Source: Candidatus Electronema aureum
GTDB lineage: Bacteria > Desulfobacterota > Desulfobulbia > Desulfobulbales > Desulfobulbaceae
NCBI GenBank assembly: GCA_004284765.1
Contig: NQJD01000002.1
Coordinates: forward strand, 150,001-182,000
Reading direction: 5' to 3'
Length of the DNA stretch: 32,000 nt
Shown here: positions 16,432 to 23,792 of the stretch, piece by piece
Layout: every line of letters begins with the position of its first letter
How positions within the stretch are numbered: position 1 is the first letter of the stretch
Notes under the pieces: generated by a model
The model's input: the letters and a program-made list of their open reading frames with translations, nothing else
Told to the model about the DNA's origin: nothing
Databases searched by the model: none
Translations under genes and position numbers: made by a program

Positions 16432-18171
16432 ATGGCAAAAAACGTTTTGGCTCTGAAGCCTTTTCTCGAAACGATCAAAACCTATTGCGTCAAGCTGACT
16501 AAAAAAGAACTCATTGACTTGCTTTGCCAAGCGGCTCTCGACACGCCTGCGGAAGAACGAAGAAATTTTCTGGAAAAGCTCTCAATCGCTTCTGTGCCGA
16601 GCGATGTTCATCGATCAGCAGCGCAGGATGAAGATGTCAGTATTTTAGCCAAGACAGACAAACTGCTTGATGATGTTGCCGCGTGGCAAAAATCTATTGA
16701 AGACGGCTCCTATTACGAAAAGCATTGGGAAGACGGGTATTGCGATGAGGAAGAATTTCCCAGTATTTCAAAAGAACAACAAGAAACTTTGGAAACTTTG
16801 TTTGCCGAAGCAGACGGCCTGTTTCTTGATGGCAAACTGGAACTTGCCGGAAATGTTTATCAGCAGTTGATTGATTTGGCTCTGCACAGCGCAGGATTGG
16901 ACTATGGGATTGATCATAACGATCTGGATGTTAACTGGCGGGAAACTTTGGCCCGATATTGCCGCTGCGTTTATGAGACATCTGCTGATAAAGAACGGGT
17001 AAAACAGGTGCTTTCTGCCTTGGAAGTCGAGCGAAAAACCGAGGCGGAAAGGCAGCACTTCGGGATTTGTTATAATCCGGCAGAAGAAATCTTTCCCTCG
17101 CTCCGGGATGTGTTTGACGTACGGCCCGGCGAGCTGGCCGATTGGAACAATTTTCTCAAAAAAGCGCAGAAAAAGCTGCATGGCCTCAGCAACAGCCGGG
17201 CCGTTCTTCTGTATTTGGAAACAGTTTATTGGCTGGACGGCATTCAAGGGCTGGCAGCGGCAGTCCGCCAGAGAAACATTCCGGTCGGCTATTTGTATTG
17301 GCTGGATATGCTGCGGGACGGCGCGGCATGGAATGAGCTGGCGCAGGCGGCGCACGAGGCTTTGCATGCCATGCCTCATGATGCTCTGCGGGGCTATGCG
17401 GCAGCTCAGTTGAGCTTGGCAGGCGAGCAAACAAGCGACAACAGCCTTGTTTTGCAAGGCAAACGCGAGCAATTTTTTTCCGAACCGCAGGAAGAACACT
17501 TGGCCGCTTTGCTGCGGGAGTCGGCCAAGCAGCAGGTCAGCGAGGCGGAATTAAGCAAGACACTTGCGTATCTTGAAGCGAAACCGGACCCCAAAAAGCC
17601 GGTTTCTTCTTTCTTGCAACTCACTCAACCAGATTTGTTTTTTCTCAAGATCAAAACTATGCTGCTGTTGGGAAAGCTGCGGGAAAGCTATGCGGCAATT
17701 GATCAAAAGGCGGCAATCGGCTGGTCAGATGAGAAAAAAACAACCGGAGCCGTTTATGTCGGCATTCTGCTCGTCCTGAGCCAAGGAAATGCTCAGGCTA
17801 AGACCATTCACAGCCTTTTTGCCAAATACATGCGCGGTCGTTACGGAAATGCGTTCATCGCTGATGCAATTCAGCAGCGTCTGCTGCAATTTCCTGTCTC
17901 GGATTCGCAAAAGGATCAGTGGCTCAAGTTTGTTGAACAAATTTCCGCCGAGCGTGCCGAGCATATTATCTCCAATCAGTATCGGAAAGGATATGCCAGA
18001 GCTGCTGAAGCCTTGGGCGGATATCTGGAATGCTTGCTTCTGCATGAGCGGAGGAGCCAAGCTGCCGCATTTCTCAATCTGAAAAGAAATCAGCAGTACA
18101 AGCGGTATCCGGCATTCCGTCGGGAACTTGATGAAGTTATCAGCAGATCACCTCTGCTGACCAGACTGTAA
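16432..18171 (+). CDS. Hypothetical 579-aa soluble, apparently all-helical protein; no family recognised
   Basis: Uninterrupted 1740-nt ORF. The ATG lies 2 nt after the dxr stop and is preceded by GAGGA. No TM segment and no catalytic motif that I can name. Confidence 0.7.
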   Translation: MAKNVLALKPFLETIKTYCVKLTKKELIDLLCQAALDTPAEERRNFLEKLSIASVPSDVHRSAAQDEDVSILAKTDKLLDDVAAWQKSIEDGSYYEKHWEDGYCDEEEFPSISKEQQETLETLFAEADGLFLDGKLELAGNVYQQLIDLALHSAGLDYGIDHNDLDVNWRETLARYCRCVYETSADKERVKQVLSALEVERKTEAERQHFGICYNPAEEIFPSLRDVFDVRPGELADWNNFLKKAQKKLHGLSNSRAVLLYLETVYWLDGIQGLAAAVRQRNIPVGYLYWLDMLRDGAAWNELAQAAHEALHAMPHDALRGYAAAQLSLAGEQTSDNSLVLQGKREQFFSEPQEEHLAALLRESAKQQVSEAELSKTLAYLEAKPDPKKPVSSFLQLTQPDLFFLKIKTMLLLGKLRESYAAIDQKAAIGWSDEKKTTGAVYVGILLVLSQGNAQAKTIHSLFAKYMRGRYGNAFIADAIQQRLLQFPVSDSQKDQWLKFVEQISAERAEHIISNQYRKGYARAAEALGGYLECLLLHERRSQAAAFLNLKRNQQYKRYPAFRRELDEVISRSPLLTRL

Positions 18172-18202: not shown

Positions 18203-19282
18203 ATGAACGCTGTCCTTTCTTTTATTCTCGTCCTCGGCATCCTCATCTTCGTTCACGAACTCGGCCATTTCCTCTTTTCCAAGCTCTTCAAGGTGCGGGT
18301 GCTGAAATTCTCGCTCGGCTTTGGCAACAAGCTGATCGGCAAGCAGTGGGGCGAGACCGAATATCTGATCTCCGCCTTCCCGCTAGGCGGTTACGTGAAA
18401 ATGTACGGCGAGCAGCCGGGTGAGGAAGTCGCTGAAGCGGATAAGGAGGTTTCTTTTTCGCACAAAACAGTCGGGCAGCGTTTCTGGATCGTCTTCGGTG
18501 GCCCGCTCTTTAACCTGCTCTTTGCTGTGCTGGTCTTCTGGCTGATGTTCGTCTTTGCTGGGATGCCTGATCTGGTGGATACAACCAAGATTGGCGAGGT
18601 TTCAGTCGGTTCGGCGGCAGAAAAAGCAGGTCTACTAAAGGGTGACCTCATTCTGACCATCAACGACCATAAAATGACTTCTTGGGAGCAAGTTTCTTCT
18701 TCCGTCAAAGAATCTGGCGGCAAGAAGATGCAGCTTGTTGTTCAGCGAGGCAAAGAAGTGCTGACCATCGAAGCCACTCCGGTACGCGACAAAGTGAAGA
18801 ACATCTTTGGCGAGCCGACCGAGGAACGCTATCTGCTCGGCATGAGCCGCGCCGAGGATGTGGTGTACAGCAAAGTTTCCCTGCTCGAATCGGTCATGCT
18901 GGCCTTGGAGCACACATGGAGCATGATTGTCCTCACGGTCATGGGCCTAGTCAAGATGCTCCAGCGCATCATTCCTGCCTCTGAACTGGGCGGGCCAATC
19001 CGCATTGCCGAGATCGCTGGTGAGCAATTTAAGGCAGGCTGGATCAACCTGATTCATTTCACCGGTCTGCTTTCGGTTAACCTCGGCATACTCAACCTGC
19101 TGCCGATCCCAATTCTTGACGGCGGCCACCTTGTTTTCCTCAGCATTGAGGCCATTCGCCGCAAGCCGATGGGTGAAATGGCCCTGATGCGGGCGCAGCA
19201 GGTCGGCATGGCCTTGCTTGGCACTTTGATGATCTTTGTCTTCTACAACGACATCGCCCGGCTGGTGCAGCGGTGGATGTAA
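18203..19282 (+). CDS. rseP: RIP zinc metalloprotease RseP (site-2 protease, M50, one PDZ)
   Basis: HELGHF in TM1, a central PDZ-like segment (GSAAEKAGLLKGDLILTIN), and NLLPIPILDGGH near the C-terminus. Confidence 0.93.
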   Translation: MNAVLSFILVLGILIFVHELGHFLFSKLFKVRVLKFSLGFGNKLIGKQWGETEYLISAFPLGGYVKMYGEQPGEEVAEADKEVSFSHKTVGQRFWIVFGGPLFNLLFAVLVFWLMFVFAGMPDLVDTTKIGEVSVGSAAEKAGLLKGDLILTINDHKMTSWEQVSSSVKESGGKKMQLVVQRGKEVLTIEATPVRDKVKNIFGEPTEERYLLGMSRAEDVVYSKVSLLESVMLALEHTWSMIVLTVMGLVKMLQRIIPASELGGPIRIAEIAGEQFKAGWINLIHFTGLLSVNLGILNLLPIPILDGGHLVFLSIEAIRRKPMGEMALMRAQQVGMALLGTLMIFVFYNDIARLVQRWM

Positions 19283-19992
19283 GTATCCCCCGTATCCTTT
19301 CCATCGAAACCGCCGCAGGCTGTGGCAGCGTTGCCTTAACGCGTGGTGGTGTGCAGAACGGCAGGCTGATTGCCGAGGCCGCTGTTCATGCAGAGACCAG
19401 CCATTCCCGCCAGCTGCTCGGTTCAGTCGAATGGGTGATGCAGGCTGCCGGAATAAGCTGGAGCGATCTGGACGCAATCGCAGTCAGTATCGGCCCTGGC
19501 TCGTTCACCGGCCTGCGCATTGGACTGGCTGCGGCCAAGGGCATGGTCTTTGCTACTGGCAAGCCGCTGATCGCTATGCCAACCTTGGATGCTGTCGCGT
19601 TGTCCTGCCCGCTGATAGATTGCCCGCTTTGGTGCATCATGGATGCCCGCAAGCAGGAGGTGTACGCAGCCTGCTACGGCGCGGACAGGCAGCAGACGAG
19701 CTTGGCGGAAGCCATCCGCCCGGAGCTGCTGGCAGAGAAGATTGCCCCACCTGCGGTCATTGCCGGGCCAGGTCTGACCGCATATCACCACCTTTTTGCT
19801 CACATTGCGGGAGTTCGGCTCATTCCTCCAACCTTGAGCAGCCTGAGCGCGGCCAAGATCGGCCTGCTTGCCGCCGAGCGGCTGGCGCGTGGCGAGCTTG
19901 CTGATCCAGCCCTGACTGTTCCCCTCTATGTCCGGCCTTCGGAAGCCGAGGTCAATCTAAAGAAGAAAGGCGGCTGTCCGCATGGCGCATAA
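19273..19992 (+). CDS. tsaB: tRNA threonylcarbamoyladenosine biosynthesis protein TsaB
   Basis: ILSIETAAGCGSVAL...HSRQLL and IAVSIGPGSFTGLRIGLAAAKG are TsaB/YeaZ signatures. The GTG start overlaps the rseP end. Confidence 0.88.
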   Translation: MDVSIPRILSIETAAGCGSVALTRGGVQNGRLIAEAAVHAETSHSRQLLGSVEWVMQAAGISWSDLDAIAVSIGPGSFTGLRIGLAAAKGMVFATGKPLIAMPTLDAVALSCPLIDCPLWCIMDARKQEVYAACYGADRQQTSLAEAIRPELLAEKIAPPAVIAGPGLTAYHHLFAHIAGVRLIPPTLSSLSAAKIGLLAAERLARGELADPALTVPLYVRPSEAEVNLKKKGGCPHGA

Positions 19993-20177
19993 TCAATGAT
20001 GAATAGGAGAAGCGTATGGAACTTTCCGCAGTGCTGACCGCTGCCTCTGAAGTTTCGTAGGTCTGCTTGAGTGCGTGCCCACCTTCCCTGTTGACAGCGA
20101 CCGTCCCGGTGTTTACCGTGGATTCATTACGTAGGCAGCGTCTTTTGTCTTAGCAATCAACTATACGAGGTTCATCT

Positions 20178-20582
20178 ATGAAGGTTCTTCAAACACTCGG
20201 TCGAAAAGGCATCTTCAAATATCGCCGTCAGACTGATGGGGTATATATTGATAGTTTCCTCGATCAGGGTGCTCTCAATCCGCCTCAGATCACCATCACT
20301 CACGAAGAATGGCTGAACATATTAAAGGCTATCGAAAATACCGCTCAAGGAAGTTTCCGTCTAAGCGGTGAGCAACCGTTTAGTACGCCACCCAACCAGA
20401 GCTTGTACGAATTGCTGACAGATGCTGTCCCAAATCCACAGGGCGGCTGGAAATGGAATCCTTCTCGGCAAGCATACGTCTGTGCGATTCTTGAACATGA
20501 GGGAACGATTGATTTGTATCACGGCGCACTTGGGCCGGACCATCAAGCAATCATATGTTTGCGGAAAGATATTGGCAAATAG
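20178..20582 (+). CDS. Hypothetical 134-aa protein
   Basis: ATG 7 nt after GAGG. Protein-like composition. No family recognised. Confidence 0.55.
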   Translation: MKVLQTLGRKGIFKYRRQTDGVYIDSFLDQGALNPPQITITHEEWLNILKAIENTAQGSFRLSGEQPFSTPPNQSLYELLTDAVPNPQGGWKWNPSRQAYVCAILEHEGTIDLYHGALGPDHQAIICLRKDIGK

Positions 20583-20673
20583 CTCATACTTCACCCATCT
20601 CCCGCCTTGCACACCAGCACCGCAGGGCAGGCAAGCGTCTTTTTGCTTGCCCACCACCCATAGCCCCTTCCTG

Positions 20674-20858
20674 CCCAAGCACATAGACGAACCCGACATA
20701 AGCACGTATGCCGATTTCGTCTAAGTGCTTATCTGAACCTCGCCTAAGTGCTTATGTCCGATTCTCCCATGTGCTATAACCGTTCCGGTTTATAGGCTGT
20801 AGAATTTTTCCCAATAGCCTGTAACTTTTCCGGCCCATAAGCTGTCGGAGAAGAAAAA
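20674..20858. repeat. Phased iteron-like repeat array (2 inverted + 6 direct units, 22-23 bp period)
   Basis: AGCAC at 20678 and 20701. GTGCT at 20725, 20748 and 20771. ATAGGCTGT at 20792, ATAGCCTGT at 20814, ATAAGCTGT at 20837. A perfect 12-mer CTAAGTGCTTAT occurs at 20721-20732 and 20744-20755. GACATAAGCAC (20695-20705) is the exact reverse complement of GTGCTTATGTC (20748-20758). Confidence 0.75.
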
Positions 20859-20890
20859 CACCGCAGCCTGCCGCTCCTCTTCTTTTTTTA

Positions 20891-20919
20891 TTGACAGAAA
20901 GCCCGCAGCGGCATAATCT
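20891..20919 (+). promoter_or_regulatory. Candidate sigma70-type promoter for the 20977 gene
   Basis: TTGACA (20891-20896), a 17-nt spacer, then TAATCT (20914-20919). A T-rich tract (CTCTTCTTTTTTTA) lies upstream, and the element is about 55 nt upstream of the ATG. Confidence 0.4.
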
Positions 20920-20976
20920 GCCAGATTAGGTTGTTTTGATGTCATGACAAACAGTTAATCCACAAGGAGAGCAGTT

Positions 20977-22053
20977 ATGGCAACCGTGCAATGGAGACCA
21001 GAAGTCAACGCCCTGACCACACCCCAGTCCTGGCGGCCCCGCTATGTGGCGCGCAACACCAACGGCAGCGACGTTCTGGCTGCCCGAATTGCCCTGAAAC
21101 ACCCCTCTCTGGACGAAGAAACCATCAAAACAACCATCACCGCCTTGATTGAGGAGATACGCATTGACCTGATCAACGGCGACCAGTCGTCTTTGGACAA
21201 CGCCATCACCTTCCGCCTTTCCCTGACCGGACGGCTGGATTCCCCGGATGCGCCCCTGCCGCCAGCCGAGGAATCGGTGGCGTTGCGGGCCGTGTTCTCC
21301 CGCGCCATCACCGAGGATGTGCAGCGCAACGTCCGCTTCGAGCGGCTACCGTTCGAGGAAAAACTGCCGGTCATCGCTCAGGCCGAAGACACGGTTTTTG
21401 GCCTGAGCGATGTTCTCAATCCGAGCGGCGCACTGCGTCTCAACGGCAGCGATCTCTCCTTTACTCAAGGCGTTGCGGATGAAGGCTGCGTGATCGAAGG
21501 CACCCGCAGCGGACGGACGGCGCAGAGCCGCTTTGTCTCAGTCTCGGACACGGCAATCACCCTGCTGCCGGACATCCCAGCCCAGAACGACCCGTGGAAC
21601 AACGAGTATCTGCTCTTTATCGCCACGCATTACACCGAAAACGGCACCCTGCGCACCGGCATCTACCGCCGCAAGCTGCGCAGCCCGCTGACCGTGACCA
21701 AGCTCGGCCACCCCAATCCGCCGGATGTCGGCATCCTGACGGACAAGGCCGCGTCGCCGTATGTCACTGTCACCGGCGGCACGTTGAGCGCGGACGAGAC
21801 CGTGCGCATTCAGGTCATCCTCGACCTGCACGCGGGCAGCCTCGCCTTCAATTTACTCGATATGACCGAAGGCGGCAAAGCGGGCGCGGCAGTGACAGTG
21901 ACGGCGAACGGGCCGGTCACGCTGGCAGGCTTCAGCGGCTCGGCCTTGATCAGCCTGAACGTGACGGTGAACAACTTCGCTGATCTGGTGAAGATGATCA
22001 GGAGCGGGTACAGCGGCAGGCTGGTGGATGTGCTGGTGGTGAAGGTGGCGTAA
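20977..22053 (+). CDS. Putative DNA-binding protein: HU-like N-terminal domain plus DUF4469-like (Ig-like) body, with an extra C-terminal domain
   Basis: AAGGAG RBS. N-terminus: LTTPQSWRPRYVARNTNGSDVLAARIALKHPSLDEETIKTTITALIEEIRIDLINGDQSSLDNAITFRLSLTGRLDSPDAPLP. Later: ...NPSGALRLNGSDLSF...YLLFIATHYTENGTLRTGIYRRKLRSPLTV. This parallels my recollection of the HU_HIG/DUF4469 architecture. Not verified by a profile search. Confidence 0.5.
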   Translation: MATVQWRPEVNALTTPQSWRPRYVARNTNGSDVLAARIALKHPSLDEETIKTTITALIEEIRIDLINGDQSSLDNAITFRLSLTGRLDSPDAPLPPAEESVALRAVFSRAITEDVQRNVRFERLPFEEKLPVIAQAEDTVFGLSDVLNPSGALRLNGSDLSFTQGVADEGCVIEGTRSGRTAQSRFVSVSDTAITLLPDIPAQNDPWNNEYLLFIATHYTENGTLRTGIYRRKLRSPLTVTKLGHPNPPDVGILTDKAASPYVTVTGGTLSADETVRIQVILDLHAGSLAFNLLDMTEGGKAGAAVTVTANGPVTLAGFSGSALISLNVTVNNFADLVKMIRSGYSGRLVDVLVVKVA

Positions 22054-22081
22054 CTAAACTATACAGAAAAGGAGAAATGAG

Positions 22082-22372
22082 ATGAATGTGAAGGCGGCAG
22101 TGAAGTTGGCAAAGGAGTATGTTCTTGATCTTTTCAACGAGGAGAACCTCACCAATCTTGGCCTTGAAGAAGTAGATTTTGATGATAGAGCAGGAGAGTG
22201 GATAGTCACGCTAGGGTTCTCGCGTCCGTGGGATGAACCGCGCAACACGCTTGCCTCTCTCGCGCAGGCGAGTACGCCTCACCGCTCGTATAAGATTGTG
22301 CGCATTGATAATACAACAGAGGAAGTGAAGATGGTTAAAAACCGTGAGGCACCTTCTGAGGTGCCTTTTTGA
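22082..22372 (+). CDS. Hypothetical 96-aa protein, candidate partner/antitoxin of the downstream PIN-like gene
   Basis: AAGGAG upstream. The stop TGA (22370-22372) overlaps the next gene's TTG start (22369-22371). No HTH/RHH motif recognised. Confidence 0.55.
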   Translation: MNVKAAVKLAKEYVLDLFNEENLTNLGLEEVDFDDRAGEWIVTLGFSRPWDEPRNTLASLAQASTPHRSYKIVRIDNTTEEVKMVKNREAPSEVPF

Positions 22373-22836
22373 AAGGCGTTCCGCTGCTCATAGACACCAA
22401 CCTGCTGGTGCTGTTTGTTGTCGGCACGGCTTCAAAGGACTATATTGCCAAGCATAAGAAGCTGACCGAGTTCACGGTTAAGGACTACAACATGCTGGTC
22501 AAGATAGTTTCTGGTGCTTCCGAGTTGCTTGTCACGCCGAACACCTTGACCGAAACATCCAACTTGGCGGCATATATCAACGAGCCTGCGCGGAGCAAGG
22601 TGCTGGCTGTTCTGCGCACGGTGATTGTATCAGACTCGCAGGAGCGATATGTGCCCAGCAGCGTTGCGGCGGAACGCAAGGAGTTCATCCGGCTGGGCCT
22701 TGCTGATGCTGCACTGCTTGAGATAGCTGCGAAGGATGTCACCTTGCTGACAACTGACTTCGACCTGTACAACACTGCGCTGAAAAAAGGCGCGCAGGCG
22801 CTCAACTTCAACCATTTGCGTGACCAGTATTTGTAG
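22369..22836 (+). CDS. PIN-like nuclease-domain protein (VapC-like)
   Basis: Acidic residues are spaced as in PIN domains: LLIDTNLL (N-terminus), TPNTLTETSNL, GLADAALLEIA, LLTTDFDLY. Length 155 aa. 4-nt overlap with the upstream small ORF. Confidence 0.55.
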   Translation: MKGVPLLIDTNLLVLFVVGTASKDYIAKHKKLTEFTVKDYNMLVKIVSGASELLVTPNTLTETSNLAAYINEPARSKVLAVLRTVIVSDSQERYVPSSVAAERKEFIRLGLADAALLEIAAKDVTLLTTDFDLYNTALKKGAQALNFNHLRDQYL

Positions 22837-22922
22837 GCGCGGCAGGCTGGCGGAGGTGTGCTGGCACTGAAGCCGAATGACCGTTGAATACGCAGCCCTC
22901 TTTCACCGCGCAGGAGCGCAGC

Positions 22923-23792
22923 ATGAAACCACTGATGCGGAAAACCGTTCTCTCCATCGGCGGCACTCTTGTCGCTGTCCTGCTCTTCCTGTCTCCTGCC
23001 CTGCGCCTGCCGGTCTTGGATGACGCAGCGGATGCCTACTTCAAAACCGCGATCACCAAAGCCGGATTGTCCTACGCCACCTGCCGGGTGATCAACGCCT
23101 CGGTCTCGATTATCGAAGAATCCAGCCTACATCTCCAGCCAGCTGGGGTCGGCGTGTCCTTGGCCGTCGGGCAGGCTCTTGATCCTATCGATGACCTGAC
23201 CGAGCGAGTCTCTGATGTCTTAGTCACGGCAGTCACGTCGCTGGGCGTGCAGAAGATAGCCTACGAAATAGGTATTTCCCTTGCCCCGCCTGCGCTCGCT
23301 GTCTTTCTGCTTACCCTCTCGTTGTTGCTTTGGTTCGGTAATGACAGAATCAAATTAGTGCAGAAAACAATCATGCGCTTCGCCCTGCTGCTTGTTGTTG
23401 CTCGTTTCTGCCTGCCGATTTCATCATTGGTGAATGAATTTGTCAATCAGCATTTCTTCAACCCACGCATTGAGCAGGTCAACAAGAATCTCAGCACCAG
23501 CTCGGCTGGGTTTGACAAGCTGAAGGATTTTAATCTCCCTGAACACAGCATACTCGGCACGGCCTCGCTGCTTAGGCAAAAATCATCGGAACTTGGCGAA
23601 GCATTTACAGAAGTTAGTAAGAACATGGGCAGCTTGACGGAGAACCTGCTCCAGCTCGCCTTCCTCTATCTCGGCATCTTCCTGATTCAGGTAATCGTTC
23701 TACCGCTGCTGGCTTTTTTCTTTTTAGTGAAAACCGCCAATGCCCTCTTCGGTACTAATCTCCCCCTGACGGCGGCTCCTTCCTCAAATTGA
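22923..23792 (+). CDS. Hypothetical multi-pass membrane protein (289 aa)
   Basis: The ATG at 22923 follows AGGAG and is preferred over the track's TTG at 22884. Hydrophobic segments: VLSIGGTLVAVLLFL, LAPPALAVFLLTLSLLLWF, FALLLVVARFCLPI, LAFLYLGIFLIQVIVLPLLAFFFLV. No family recognised. Confidence 0.6.
   Translation: MKPLMRKTVLSIGGTLVAVLLFLSPALRLPVLDDAADAYFKTAITKAGLSYATCRVINASVSIIEESSLHLQPAGVGVSLAVGQALDPIDDLTERVSDVLVTAVTSLGVQKIAYEIGISLAPPALAVFLLTLSLLLWFGNDRIKLVQKTIMRFALLLVVARFCLPISSLVNEFVNQHFFNPRIEQVNKNLSTSSAGFDKLKDFNLPEHSILGTASLLRQKSSELGEAFTEVSKNMGSLTENLLQLAFLYLGIFLIQVIVLPLLAFFFLVKTANALFGTNLPLTAAPSSN

Follow-up and report, generated by a model that had tools for sequence, protein, structure and literature searches.

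A 23-bp-phased array of dyad sites upstream of an HU-Ig gene in Candidatus Electronema aureum and its recurrence across a cable-bacterium gene family

In a 32,000-nucleotide stretch of the genome of the cable bacterium Candidatus Electronema aureum (contig NQJD01000002.1, positions 150,001 to 182,000; hereafter the window, numbered from its first letter), eight related sites at a pitch of about 23 bp precede the promoter of a gene for a 358-aa protein with an HU fold and two immunoglobulin-like (Ig-like) domains, and similarly phased arrays stand upstream of most testable copies of this HU-Ig gene family in other cable bacteria, with core sequences that vary by paralog lineage and are kept between orthologs. 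We propose that array and gene form a self-contained cassette whose dimeric HU-Ig product would bind its own array cooperatively and control its own promoter, a reading to which we assign a probability of roughly one half and in which we infer binding, cooperativity and regulation from sequence. Taken across the family, the arrays and their matching genes point to a set of matched protein-DNA-site pairs. On a bolder view, which we advance more tentatively, the HU fold, ordinarily that of a non-specific nucleoid protein, may have diversified into at least 20 private specificities per genome through joint change of protein and sites, with movable cassettes of ~1.4 kb serving as independent cooperative switches or chromosomal address labels.

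The array and its promoter in the window

The sites lie in a non-coding gap of 394 bp (20583-20976) between a 134-aa open reading frame (ORF) and the 358-aa ORF. The original prediction for this stretch had placed AGCAC at 20678 and 20701, GTGCT at 20725, 20748 and 20771, ATAGGCTGT at 20792, ATAGCCTGT at 20814 and ATAAGCTGT at 20837, and had further noted a 12-mer direct repeat, CTAAGTGCTTAT, at 20721 and 20744 and a segment, GACATAAGCAC (20695-20705), that is the reverse complement of GTGCTTATGTC (20748-20758); on re-checking the window sequence we found every one of these coordinates in place, together with the extent and non-coding character of the gap and the count of eight related sites. 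The division into two inverted and six direct units is too simple: the units are imperfect palindromes, without an assigned strand, that fall into two classes. Class A (S1-S5) resembles the 12-mer ATAAGCGCTTAT and class B (S6-S8) the 11-mer TATAGSCTRTA.

Class A opens with S1 (20675..20686, CCAAGCACATAG, centre 20680.5) and S2 (20698..20709, ATAAGCACGTAT, centre 20703.5), the latter matching the palindrome ATAAGCGCTTAT at 10/12 positions, and continues with S3 (20721..20732, centre 20726.5) and S4 (20744..20755, centre 20749.5), which share the repeated 12-mer, and with S5 (20767..20778, CCATGTGCTATA, centre 20772.5), a hybrid of the two classes. Class B comprises S6 (20791..20801, TATAGGCTGTA, an 11-mer centred at 20796), S7 (20813..20823, AATAGCCTGTA, centre 20818) and S8 (20836..20846, CATAAGCTGTC, centre 20841), the last of which lies 50 bp upstream of the -35 box. 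From S1 to S8, the centre-to-centre steps are 23, 23, 23, 23, 23.5, 22 and 23 bp. At an orthologous locus, L002 (loci with relatives of the gene carry L numbers here), the equivalent of S4 is CTAAGCGCTTAT, palindromic at 11/12 positions, and that of S6 is TATAGCCTATA, a perfect odd palindrome. S1 and S2 are inverted counterparts of S5 and S4 around a dyad inside S3; a dyad near 20715, as earlier proposed, does exist, but it is weaker than this one, a 34-nt dyad centred at 20726.5 that is the strongest large dyad. Nor do all sites lie strictly on one DNA face, as had been supposed, since a 23-bp step amounts to ~2.2 turns of B-DNA.

The spacing stands well above chance. Over the 230 bp that precede the -35 box, autocorrelation across lags 8-60 was highest at lag 23, with a match of 0.38 that none of 200 shuffles equalled, and the 138-bp stretch from 20651 is the most periodic in the whole window (0.49 at lag 23, against a window-wide mean of 0.349 and standard deviation of 0.025). 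Matches at lag 23 gather in 11 of 23 phases (p=0.002), in keeping with a unit built of a core plus a spacer. When the window was searched, the 12-mer MTAAGYRCTTAT with at most one mismatch was confined to the array, and all three occurrences of ATARSCTGT also fell within it. Tandem Repeats Finder missed the array, since the similarity of whole units falls below 70%, and neither tRNA genes nor Rfam families were found in the window.

Between the array and the promoter runs a linker (20847..20890, no strand assigned) with a T-rich tract that abuts the -35 box, and the consensus of 73 loci likewise conserves an A/T-rich tract just 5' of that box; a possible degenerate ninth site, GCAGCCTGC, is centred in the linker at ~20866. 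The sigma-70-type promoter that follows on the forward strand (20891..20919) consists, as the original prediction had it, of TTGACA at 20891-20896, a 17-nt spacer and TAATCT at 20914-20919, and its -35 box, spacer length and -10 box (as TAnnnT) are all conserved across the 73 loci, at ~86-88 nt from the start codon. A simple promoter scan did not list this element because its -10 box matches TATAAT at only 3/6 positions. The 5' leader (20920..20976, forward strand) carries a strong ribosome-binding site, AAGGAGAG, at 20964-20971, where the family consensus reads GGAGAAC-N4-ATG. The phase of S8 relative to the -35 box (50 mod 23 = 4) lies inside a family-wide cluster. The sites precede the HU-Ig gene's own promoter and keep register with it, as autoregulatory operators would.

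Left of the array, a GC-rich hairpin resembling repetitive extragenic palindromes (REP-like; 20621..20655, no strand assigned), with stem GGCAAGC / GCTTGCC and loop GTCTTTTT, marks the left edge of the conserved unit: the homology of the window to loci L002 and L081 begins there. A near-identical copy of this hairpin lies elsewhere in L035. REP-like GC-rich palindromes starting with GTAGGG, such as CGTAGGGTGGGCAAGCGTCTTTTTGCTTGCCCACC and GTAGGGGCAATTCATGAATTGCCCCTAC, are found at the upstream edge of many arrays and also elsewhere (in L035 at ~1170-1215 and 2700-2750, and in the upstream regions of L039, L047, L054 and L071); the window copy is slightly degenerate (CGCAGGG).

Recurrence, core specificity and genomic placement across the family

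A scan of one genome per species, from which the best 80 of 96 loci were fetched, located those 96 loci with relatives of the gene in 13 cable-bacterium genomes. The expansion is lineage-specific, with 20 gene copies recovered from a single metagenome-assembled genome (MAG), nearly all with their own array. Among 73 loci that could be tested over the 230 bp upstream of the -35 box, 63 showed significant periodicity, and in all 63 the best lag was either 22/23 (44 loci) or 45-47 (19 loci). Nearly every copy shares a common layout, in which 4-12 repeats end a few tens of base pairs before TTGACA-N17-TAnnnT (median distance from array end to -35 box, 40 bp), a promoter that lies ~87 nt upstream of the start codon. 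Measured from the -35 box, the cores take up a non-random phase (Rayleigh R=0.50, n=32, p ~4e-4). Of the 69 strongly periodic clusters in 526 kb of fetched loci, 49 lie directly upstream of HU-Ig genes. Strict palindromes are enriched 7-fold in the arrays (76 observed vs 10.4 expected). No conserved neighbouring gene was found among 81 loci, which argues that gene and array form a stand-alone unit.

The cores themselves vary by paralog lineage and are kept between orthologs, examples being CATGTACATG, CACCAGTG, CGATCACGTGATCG, GAGCAAGCACTTGCTC and AACATCCTAGGATGTT. An 8-mer seed taken from an array has a median of 7 matches in that array and a mean of 0.34 in others, where the matches mostly fall in orthologs from other genomes; blastn between arrays likewise aligned only ortholog pairs from different genomes. 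One resemblance crosses lineages: the class B sites of the window (S6-S8, 20791-20846; ATAGSCTRT) are similar to CATAGCCTATG, the core of L022 and L028, which belong to another paralog lineage. Because L028, with its class-B-like core, is in the same MAG as L002, the ortholog of the window locus, cross-regulation between paralogs through these sites is possible.

A graded series of relatives, whose proteins are 89% (L002), 84% (L081), 72% (L084), 74% (L082) and 68% (L004) identical to that of the window, reveals how the cores change. L002, L081 and L084 retain the core types of the window, and within this lineage a site-by-site comparison of cores with spacers was significant: between the window and L002, 58/60 core positions and 36/44 spacer positions are identical (p=0.017), and between the window and L084, 51/60 and 26/44 (p=0.0036). 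This excess of conservation in the cores suggests that selection acts on them in the lineage of the window. L082 and L004 have a homologous array whose spacers can still be aligned with those of the window (for instance AGATGAACCCGAC and ATCCGAACCTCAT), yet every core is CTATGTACATAG, which departs from ATAAGCGCTTAT at the symmetric position pairs 1/12, 4/9 and 6/7. In this sister lineage, both half-sites are thus altered alike, and in at least five units together. Such a symmetric change of all cores at once is what would be expected if a symmetric dimer had switched its specificity.

Array sequence and the gene of the proposed regulator vary together across the family, physical linkage being a partial confounder of this relation, and the covariation appears to involve the HU half of the protein. 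For pairs whose Ig domains are alike, the ratio of HU distance to Ig distance had a median of 0.77 where the arrays were similar and 1.70 where they differed (p ~9e-5, the compared pairs not being independent of one another), whereas partial correlations of array similarity with HU or Ig distance over all pairs were ~-0.10 for both and uninformative. The window and L081 illustrate the pattern: their arrays are near-identical, and their proteins agree at 100% over the N-terminus and HU domain and at 75% over the Ig domains. Their DNA identity is 93-100% between 20680 and ~21520, a span that takes in the array together with ~540 bp at the start of the gene, and falls to 67-90% (mostly 67-80%) over the last ~530 bp, 21520-22053, which encode the second Ig-like domain. 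L028 and L033 present the reverse: they agree at 88% over the Ig domains and at 53% over the HU domains, and their arrays are unrelated. These mosaic genes suggest recombination or gene conversion between paralogs.

Homology between the window and L081 is restricted to 20620-22053, where the right end is the stop codon, and each of the three close relatives has other flanking genes. Shared homology bounded by the hairpin and the stop codon, combined with differing flanks, indicates that the array and the gene together make up a cassette, which we take from these alignments to be a unit of ~1.43 kb that runs from the REP-like hairpin to the stop codon, occupies varied genomic places and has a mosaic 3' end. 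The 134-aa ORF lies outside this unit, as the upstream genes of the orthologous cassettes in L002 and L081 are unrelated. The original prediction had named the HU-like protein as the only DNA-binding candidate nearby; that protein is favoured as the cognate binder, given that array type tracks the HU domain.

The 23-bp pitch may extend beyond the close family. A phmmer search put the family at 272 clusters at 50% identity with E<=0.001, of which 24 reached E<=1e-30. A metagenome scan for distant relatives found none, and eight such loci were taken from direct contig look-ups; three of the eight (24-37% identity, ~40-48% GC) have three upstream repeats in steps of 22-24 bp (p<=0.013 each). The pitch therefore seems tied to the protein family.

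Several loci deviate from the common layout. In L008, L026 and L066, the array stands ~1 kb upstream instead of adjoining the gene, and an inserted gene or gene pair and a second copy of the promoter lie between. Arrays with a promoter (23 or 46 bp phase, TTGACA) also precede genes outside the family, in L026 (21-337), L056 (1-317 and 731-997) and L058 (6121-6370); the genes behind them encode a 235-aa secreted protein, a 130-aa protein, a 237-aa protein and a leucine-rich-repeat protein, and both L056 arrays have one common core (CTACCCTAATAGGAG). These cases suggest a broader use of the module of array plus promoter, perhaps one by which a single paralog controls a few adjacent genes. Orphan arrays, with no HU-like gene behind them, are present in L002 (331-450), with a core of the L012 type, CCTGAACNNNTTCAGG, and in L061 (691-1007), while L077 (21-420) holds a remnant, consisting of a duplicated array, promoter and first codons, ~3 kb upstream of an intact copy.

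The HU-Ig protein, the proposed mechanism and its rivals

The 358-aa gene (20977..22053, forward strand), which forms the right end of the cassette, encodes a protein of HU-HIG/DUF4469 type, in keeping with its earlier label as HU-like. Its AlphaFold2 model (mean pLDDT 77) comprises an N-terminal beta-hairpin (strands 2-11 and 18-24), an HU-type core (~residues 25-123) and, after residue 135, two beta-sandwich domains. The best Foldseek match is 4FMR (E=7e-11), which is BVU_2165, an HU-plus-Ig protein of Bacteroides vulgatus (PMC5499826), and chains of classical HU and IHF can be aligned with its N-terminal domain at a probability of 1.0 and a TM-score, normalised to the target, of 0.7-0.83. 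A profile search gave weak matches to HU, Hbb and IHF, including IHF-beta, and a sequence-only search of the PDB did not find 4FMR. The window protein scores 13 bits against PF18291, where the cut-off is 26.2 (E=0.11); homologs 54-70% identical to it carry precomputed matches to PF18291, PF14734 or PF00216, and some sources label homologs 'DUF4469 domain-containing' or 'HU family DNA-binding'. These homologs are nearly confined to cable bacteria (Candidatus Electronema, Candidatus Electrothrix and Desulfobulbaceae MAGs). Judged by its predicted structure, the product is an HU-HIG-type protein as defined in PMC5499826. Within the family, the HU helices (residues 41-60) are the most variable region, and the Ig domains and the tip of the beta-arm, GRLDSPDAPLPP, are conserved.

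The mechanism that we propose for the cassette, which runs from left to right through the REP-like hairpin, eight dyad sites at 23-bp pitch, the A/T tract, the sigma-70 promoter, the leader and the HU-Ig gene, begins with dimerisation of the protein through its HU fold. One dimer would occupy each imperfectly palindromic site of 11-12 bp, with half-site (A/C)TAAG(C/T), and adjacent dimers would touch one another, probably via their Ig-like domains, to build a cooperative filament over ~185 bp in fixed register with the -35 box. Because the step is ~2.2 turns, a regular filament would need under-wound or wrapped DNA, or would spiral round the helix. Acting like a switch, the filament would govern how active the cassette's own promoter is, the sign of the autoregulation not being readable from sequence. 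With each paralog lineage having its own core, a cable-bacterium genome would contain at least 20 largely non-cross-reacting protein/array pairs, some of which might also drive neighbouring non-HU genes that have a like array plus promoter. Of the four readings that the original prediction offered, this corresponds to the cooperative multi-operator, which recurrence in 63/73 loci and lineage-specific cores favour; its three others, namely an iteron origin, a partition centromere and recombinase arm sites, gained no support.

A number of observations weigh against the proposal. The protein is acidic, with a net charge of -7 overall and -4 in the HU domain (family median -9), and the tip of its beta-arm lacks the basic residues of classical HU. 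Published analysis of the HU-HIG clade holds that the Ig domain in 4FMR narrows the clasp, leaving it 'unlikely to bind DNA', and that the clade is unlikely to comprise sequence-specific transcription factors (Burroughs et al. 2017, PMC5499826). The window array contains two site classes, one of which resembles the core of another paralog lineage, and no site overlaps the promoter, which leaves the mode of action on transcription unclear. At least three strict palindromes are found in only 12/63 arrays, a generic test of cores against spacers over eight close ortholog pairs was non-significant, and physical adjacency, together with gene conversion of the 3', Ig-coding part of the gene, could account for part of the link between array and HU domain.

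One alternative keeps the HU-Ig protein as the binder of its own array and assigns it an architectural task, the complex marking or tethering the locus as a centromere, pairing site or nucleoid anchor while the promoter merely keeps gene and site linked. The arrays are long (4-12 units) and of fixed pitch, like the parC, sopC and tubC centromeres; two Ig-like domains are at hand for protein-protein contacts; gene and site move jointly as a cassette; and orphan arrays without a gene exist in L002 and L061. We nonetheless consider this alternative unlikely, as no NTPase of the ParA, ParM or TubZ type and no other par gene was found among the neighbours of the window array, no partner gene is conserved beside 81 loci, and the fixed register and distance to a conserved promoter, together with the occurrence of the module before other genes, indicate transcription control.

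A second alternative holds that the HU-Ig protein is not the binder, so that the arrays would be read by factors encoded elsewhere or would act through intrinsic DNA structure such as curvature or a cruciform, the link to HU being one of adjacency. The acidic protein, its non-basic arm tip and the occluded clasp argued for Ig-fused HU-HIG proteins (PMC5499826) are in line with this view, as are arrays before non-HU genes, and phased T-tracts in the promoter-proximal spacers and a long imperfect hairpin that could form on both strands (z ~-5.5 and -5.8) are compatible with a structural role. Dozens of cores would need dozens of factors, however, and HU-Ig is the only gene consistently linked to the arrays; intrinsic structure leaves the concerted, dyad-symmetric core switch with retained spacers unexplained; and the 23-bp pitch recurs at relatives of 24-37% identity in organisms that differ in GC content. 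We give this alternative a small share of the probability.

That the array might be a cis site for copying, moving or converting the cassette, akin to arm-type sites or to the 22-bp end repeats of TnsB or MuA, we regard as improbable. Near-identical cassettes do occupy three unrelated contexts (the window, L002 and L081), the 3' third of the gene is mosaic, L077 carries a duplicated remnant cassette, and contigs often break at HU-Ig loci. Against such a role, no integrase was found among the neighbours of the window array in Pfam and NCBIfam scans, and no conserved integrase or transposase adjoins the cassettes; each cassette has a single array with no counterpart at its other end; the cassette edges are the REP-like hairpin and the stop codon, not the array; and a core that differs in every lineage could not be read by a shared recombinase.

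A structured RNA, in which the transcribed array would act as phased hairpins, is very improbable: predicted folding is well below that of shuffled controls (z -5.5 and -5.8), but the signal is equal on both strands, as for an inverted repeat at the DNA level, the array lies upstream of a conserved promoter and without an Rfam match, and arrays made of direct units only, such as those of L055 and L080, could not form such a hairpin. RNA and cruciform structures were set aside on the grounds that the strand-equal fold z-scores follow from the inverted units. A CRISPR array was rejected as well, the whole unit being 23 bp with a core of 11-12 bp and no cas genes appearing in Pfam and NCBIfam scans of the neighbours. 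An iteron-type replication origin, be it that of a plasmid or phage or a secondary one, has next to nothing to recommend it beyond the classical 22-23 bp pitch, the adjoining gene for a protein with a DNA-binding fold and a peak of cumulative GC skew near 19-20 kb, a maximum that would mark a terminus instead, set against the lack of a Rep-family protein in the Pfam and NCBIfam scans of the neighbours, DnaA boxes at chance (5 vs 4.9 expected), a chromosomal housekeeping context (rseP, tsaB, rlmN), 20 gene copies from one genome, nearly all with their own array, and no plasmid homolog in a tblastn search against plasmids.

Phased arrays read by an adjacently encoded protein are already known from iterons and parC-type centromeres. 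Plasmid iterons (pSC101, R6K, F, P1, RK2) are repeats of ~17-22 bp, phased at ~22-23 bp in direct and inverted orientation beside the gene of their reader, with autoregulation; the window array is alike in having phased direct and inverted repeats beside the gene of its proposed reader and differs in that the locus is chromosomal and has no Rep-type winged-helix protein, DnaA boxes or AT-rich unwinding element. In the parC-ParR (R1, pSK41) and tubC-TubR systems, repeats upstream of the operon promoter are bound cooperatively by a small dimer that forms a superhelical filament and autoregulates. Tandem repeats directly before the promoter of the gene for the proposed binder are common to both; here, though, the protein has an HU fold instead of a ribbon-helix-helix or winged helix-turn-helix, a cytomotive NTPase partner is missing, a dyad core of 11-12 bp sits in a unit of 23 bp, and the arrays stop upstream of the -35 box and do not flank or overlap the promoter. 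The array thus belongs with neither iterons nor parC, since it lacks a Rep protein, an NTPase and DnaA-box enrichment and the genes occur in 20 copies with their own arrays.

Two further systems offer partial parallels. IHF and Borrelia Hbb are HU-fold dimers that read specific DNA; they are basic, single-domain proteins that sharply bend single asymmetric sites of ~30-35 bp, whereas the window protein is acidic, has Ig domains and has short dyad sites in arrays as its proposed targets. Archaeal Orc1/Cdc6 proteins occur as several paralogs per genome, each beside its own origin recognition box repeats that only it reads, and resemble the present family in that each paralog adjoins a lineage-specific repeat cluster; they differ in being AAA+ proteins with a winged helix that initiate replication, in far fewer pairs, and nothing at the loci described here indicates replication. 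The closest relative is the HU-HIG clade itself (PF18291; DUF4469, PF14734; 4FMR; PMC5499826), with the same architecture of N-terminal beta-hairpin, HU core and C-terminal Ig-like domain, and the same lineage-specific expansion, fast HU divergence and want of a conserved operon partner. The differences are that the expansion is in cable bacteria (Desulfobulbaceae) and not in Bacteroidetes, that the window protein has two Ig-like domains, and that near-universal, lineage-specific, 23-bp-phased arrays accompany the genes, a feature unmentioned in PMC5499826 and contrary to its inference of non-specificity.

Our literature searches found no description of upstream arrays for the HU-HIG/DUF4469 family, nor of the HU-Ig family in cable bacteria. 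What appears to be new is the tie between an array and an HU-Ig protein from a clade of unknown function argued not to bind DNA specifically; the scale, with at least 20 copies per genome, lineage-specific cores and an invariant 23-bp pitch and promoter; and the joint switching of all sites between sister lineages by symmetric half-site changes, with the HU half staying tied to the array. To our knowledge, cable bacteria cannot yet be grown in pure culture. If the proposed binding holds, the family would provide a natural library of matched protein/DNA-site pairs for the study of how specificity evolves and for orthogonal regulators, and a first functional handle on the HU-HIG/DUF4469 family, and would point to a so far unexplored level at which cable bacteria control their genes or chromosomes. 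On the bolder view of private specificities, the short 23-bp-phased repeats at distant relatives would make such specificity a general property of HU-HIG proteins, overturning the published view of them as non-specific.

Neighbouring genes and distant loci

The genes around the window cassette are housekeeping genes, encoding an M50 protease (RseP type), a TsaB-like protein, a histidine phosphatase and RlmN, and the original prediction's statement that no rep, par or integrase gene lies nearby agrees with our Pfam and NCBIfam scans of the neighbours. Pfam and NCBIfam assigned no family to the five ORFs at 20178-23792, including the 134-aa ORF, nor to a 579-aa ORF (16432-18171) upstream of the rseP-like gene, which has a sub-threshold ASXH match. 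GC skew turns from positive to negative at 19000-21000, and its cumulative maximum lies near 19-20 kb; the change may reflect gene orientation and composition only, a 32-kb window being too short to decide.

At four distant loci (L087, L090, L092 and L093; 41% GC, 27-31% identical), two small divergent genes of ~110-130 aa lie just upstream of the HU-like gene, and long proteins with an Lcl_C domain are encoded near the L090 and L091 genes, one of them with a faint HU-DNA_bdg match; the context of the four loci looks phage- or island-like. In the window, two overlapping ORFs, 22082-22372 (96 aa) and 22369-22836 (155 aa), begin 29 nt 3' of the HU-like gene and have no Pfam match. The 155-aa protein starts with LLIDTNLL, which we take, as a candidate only, to recall PIN domains. 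The pair is homologous to a 108-aa and 163-aa pair in L066 (E=6e-12 and 2e-27), and in both L066 and L008 the homologous ORF pair sits between the array with its promoter and the HU-like gene, so that it looks like a two-gene module that inserts into HU-Ig cassettes.

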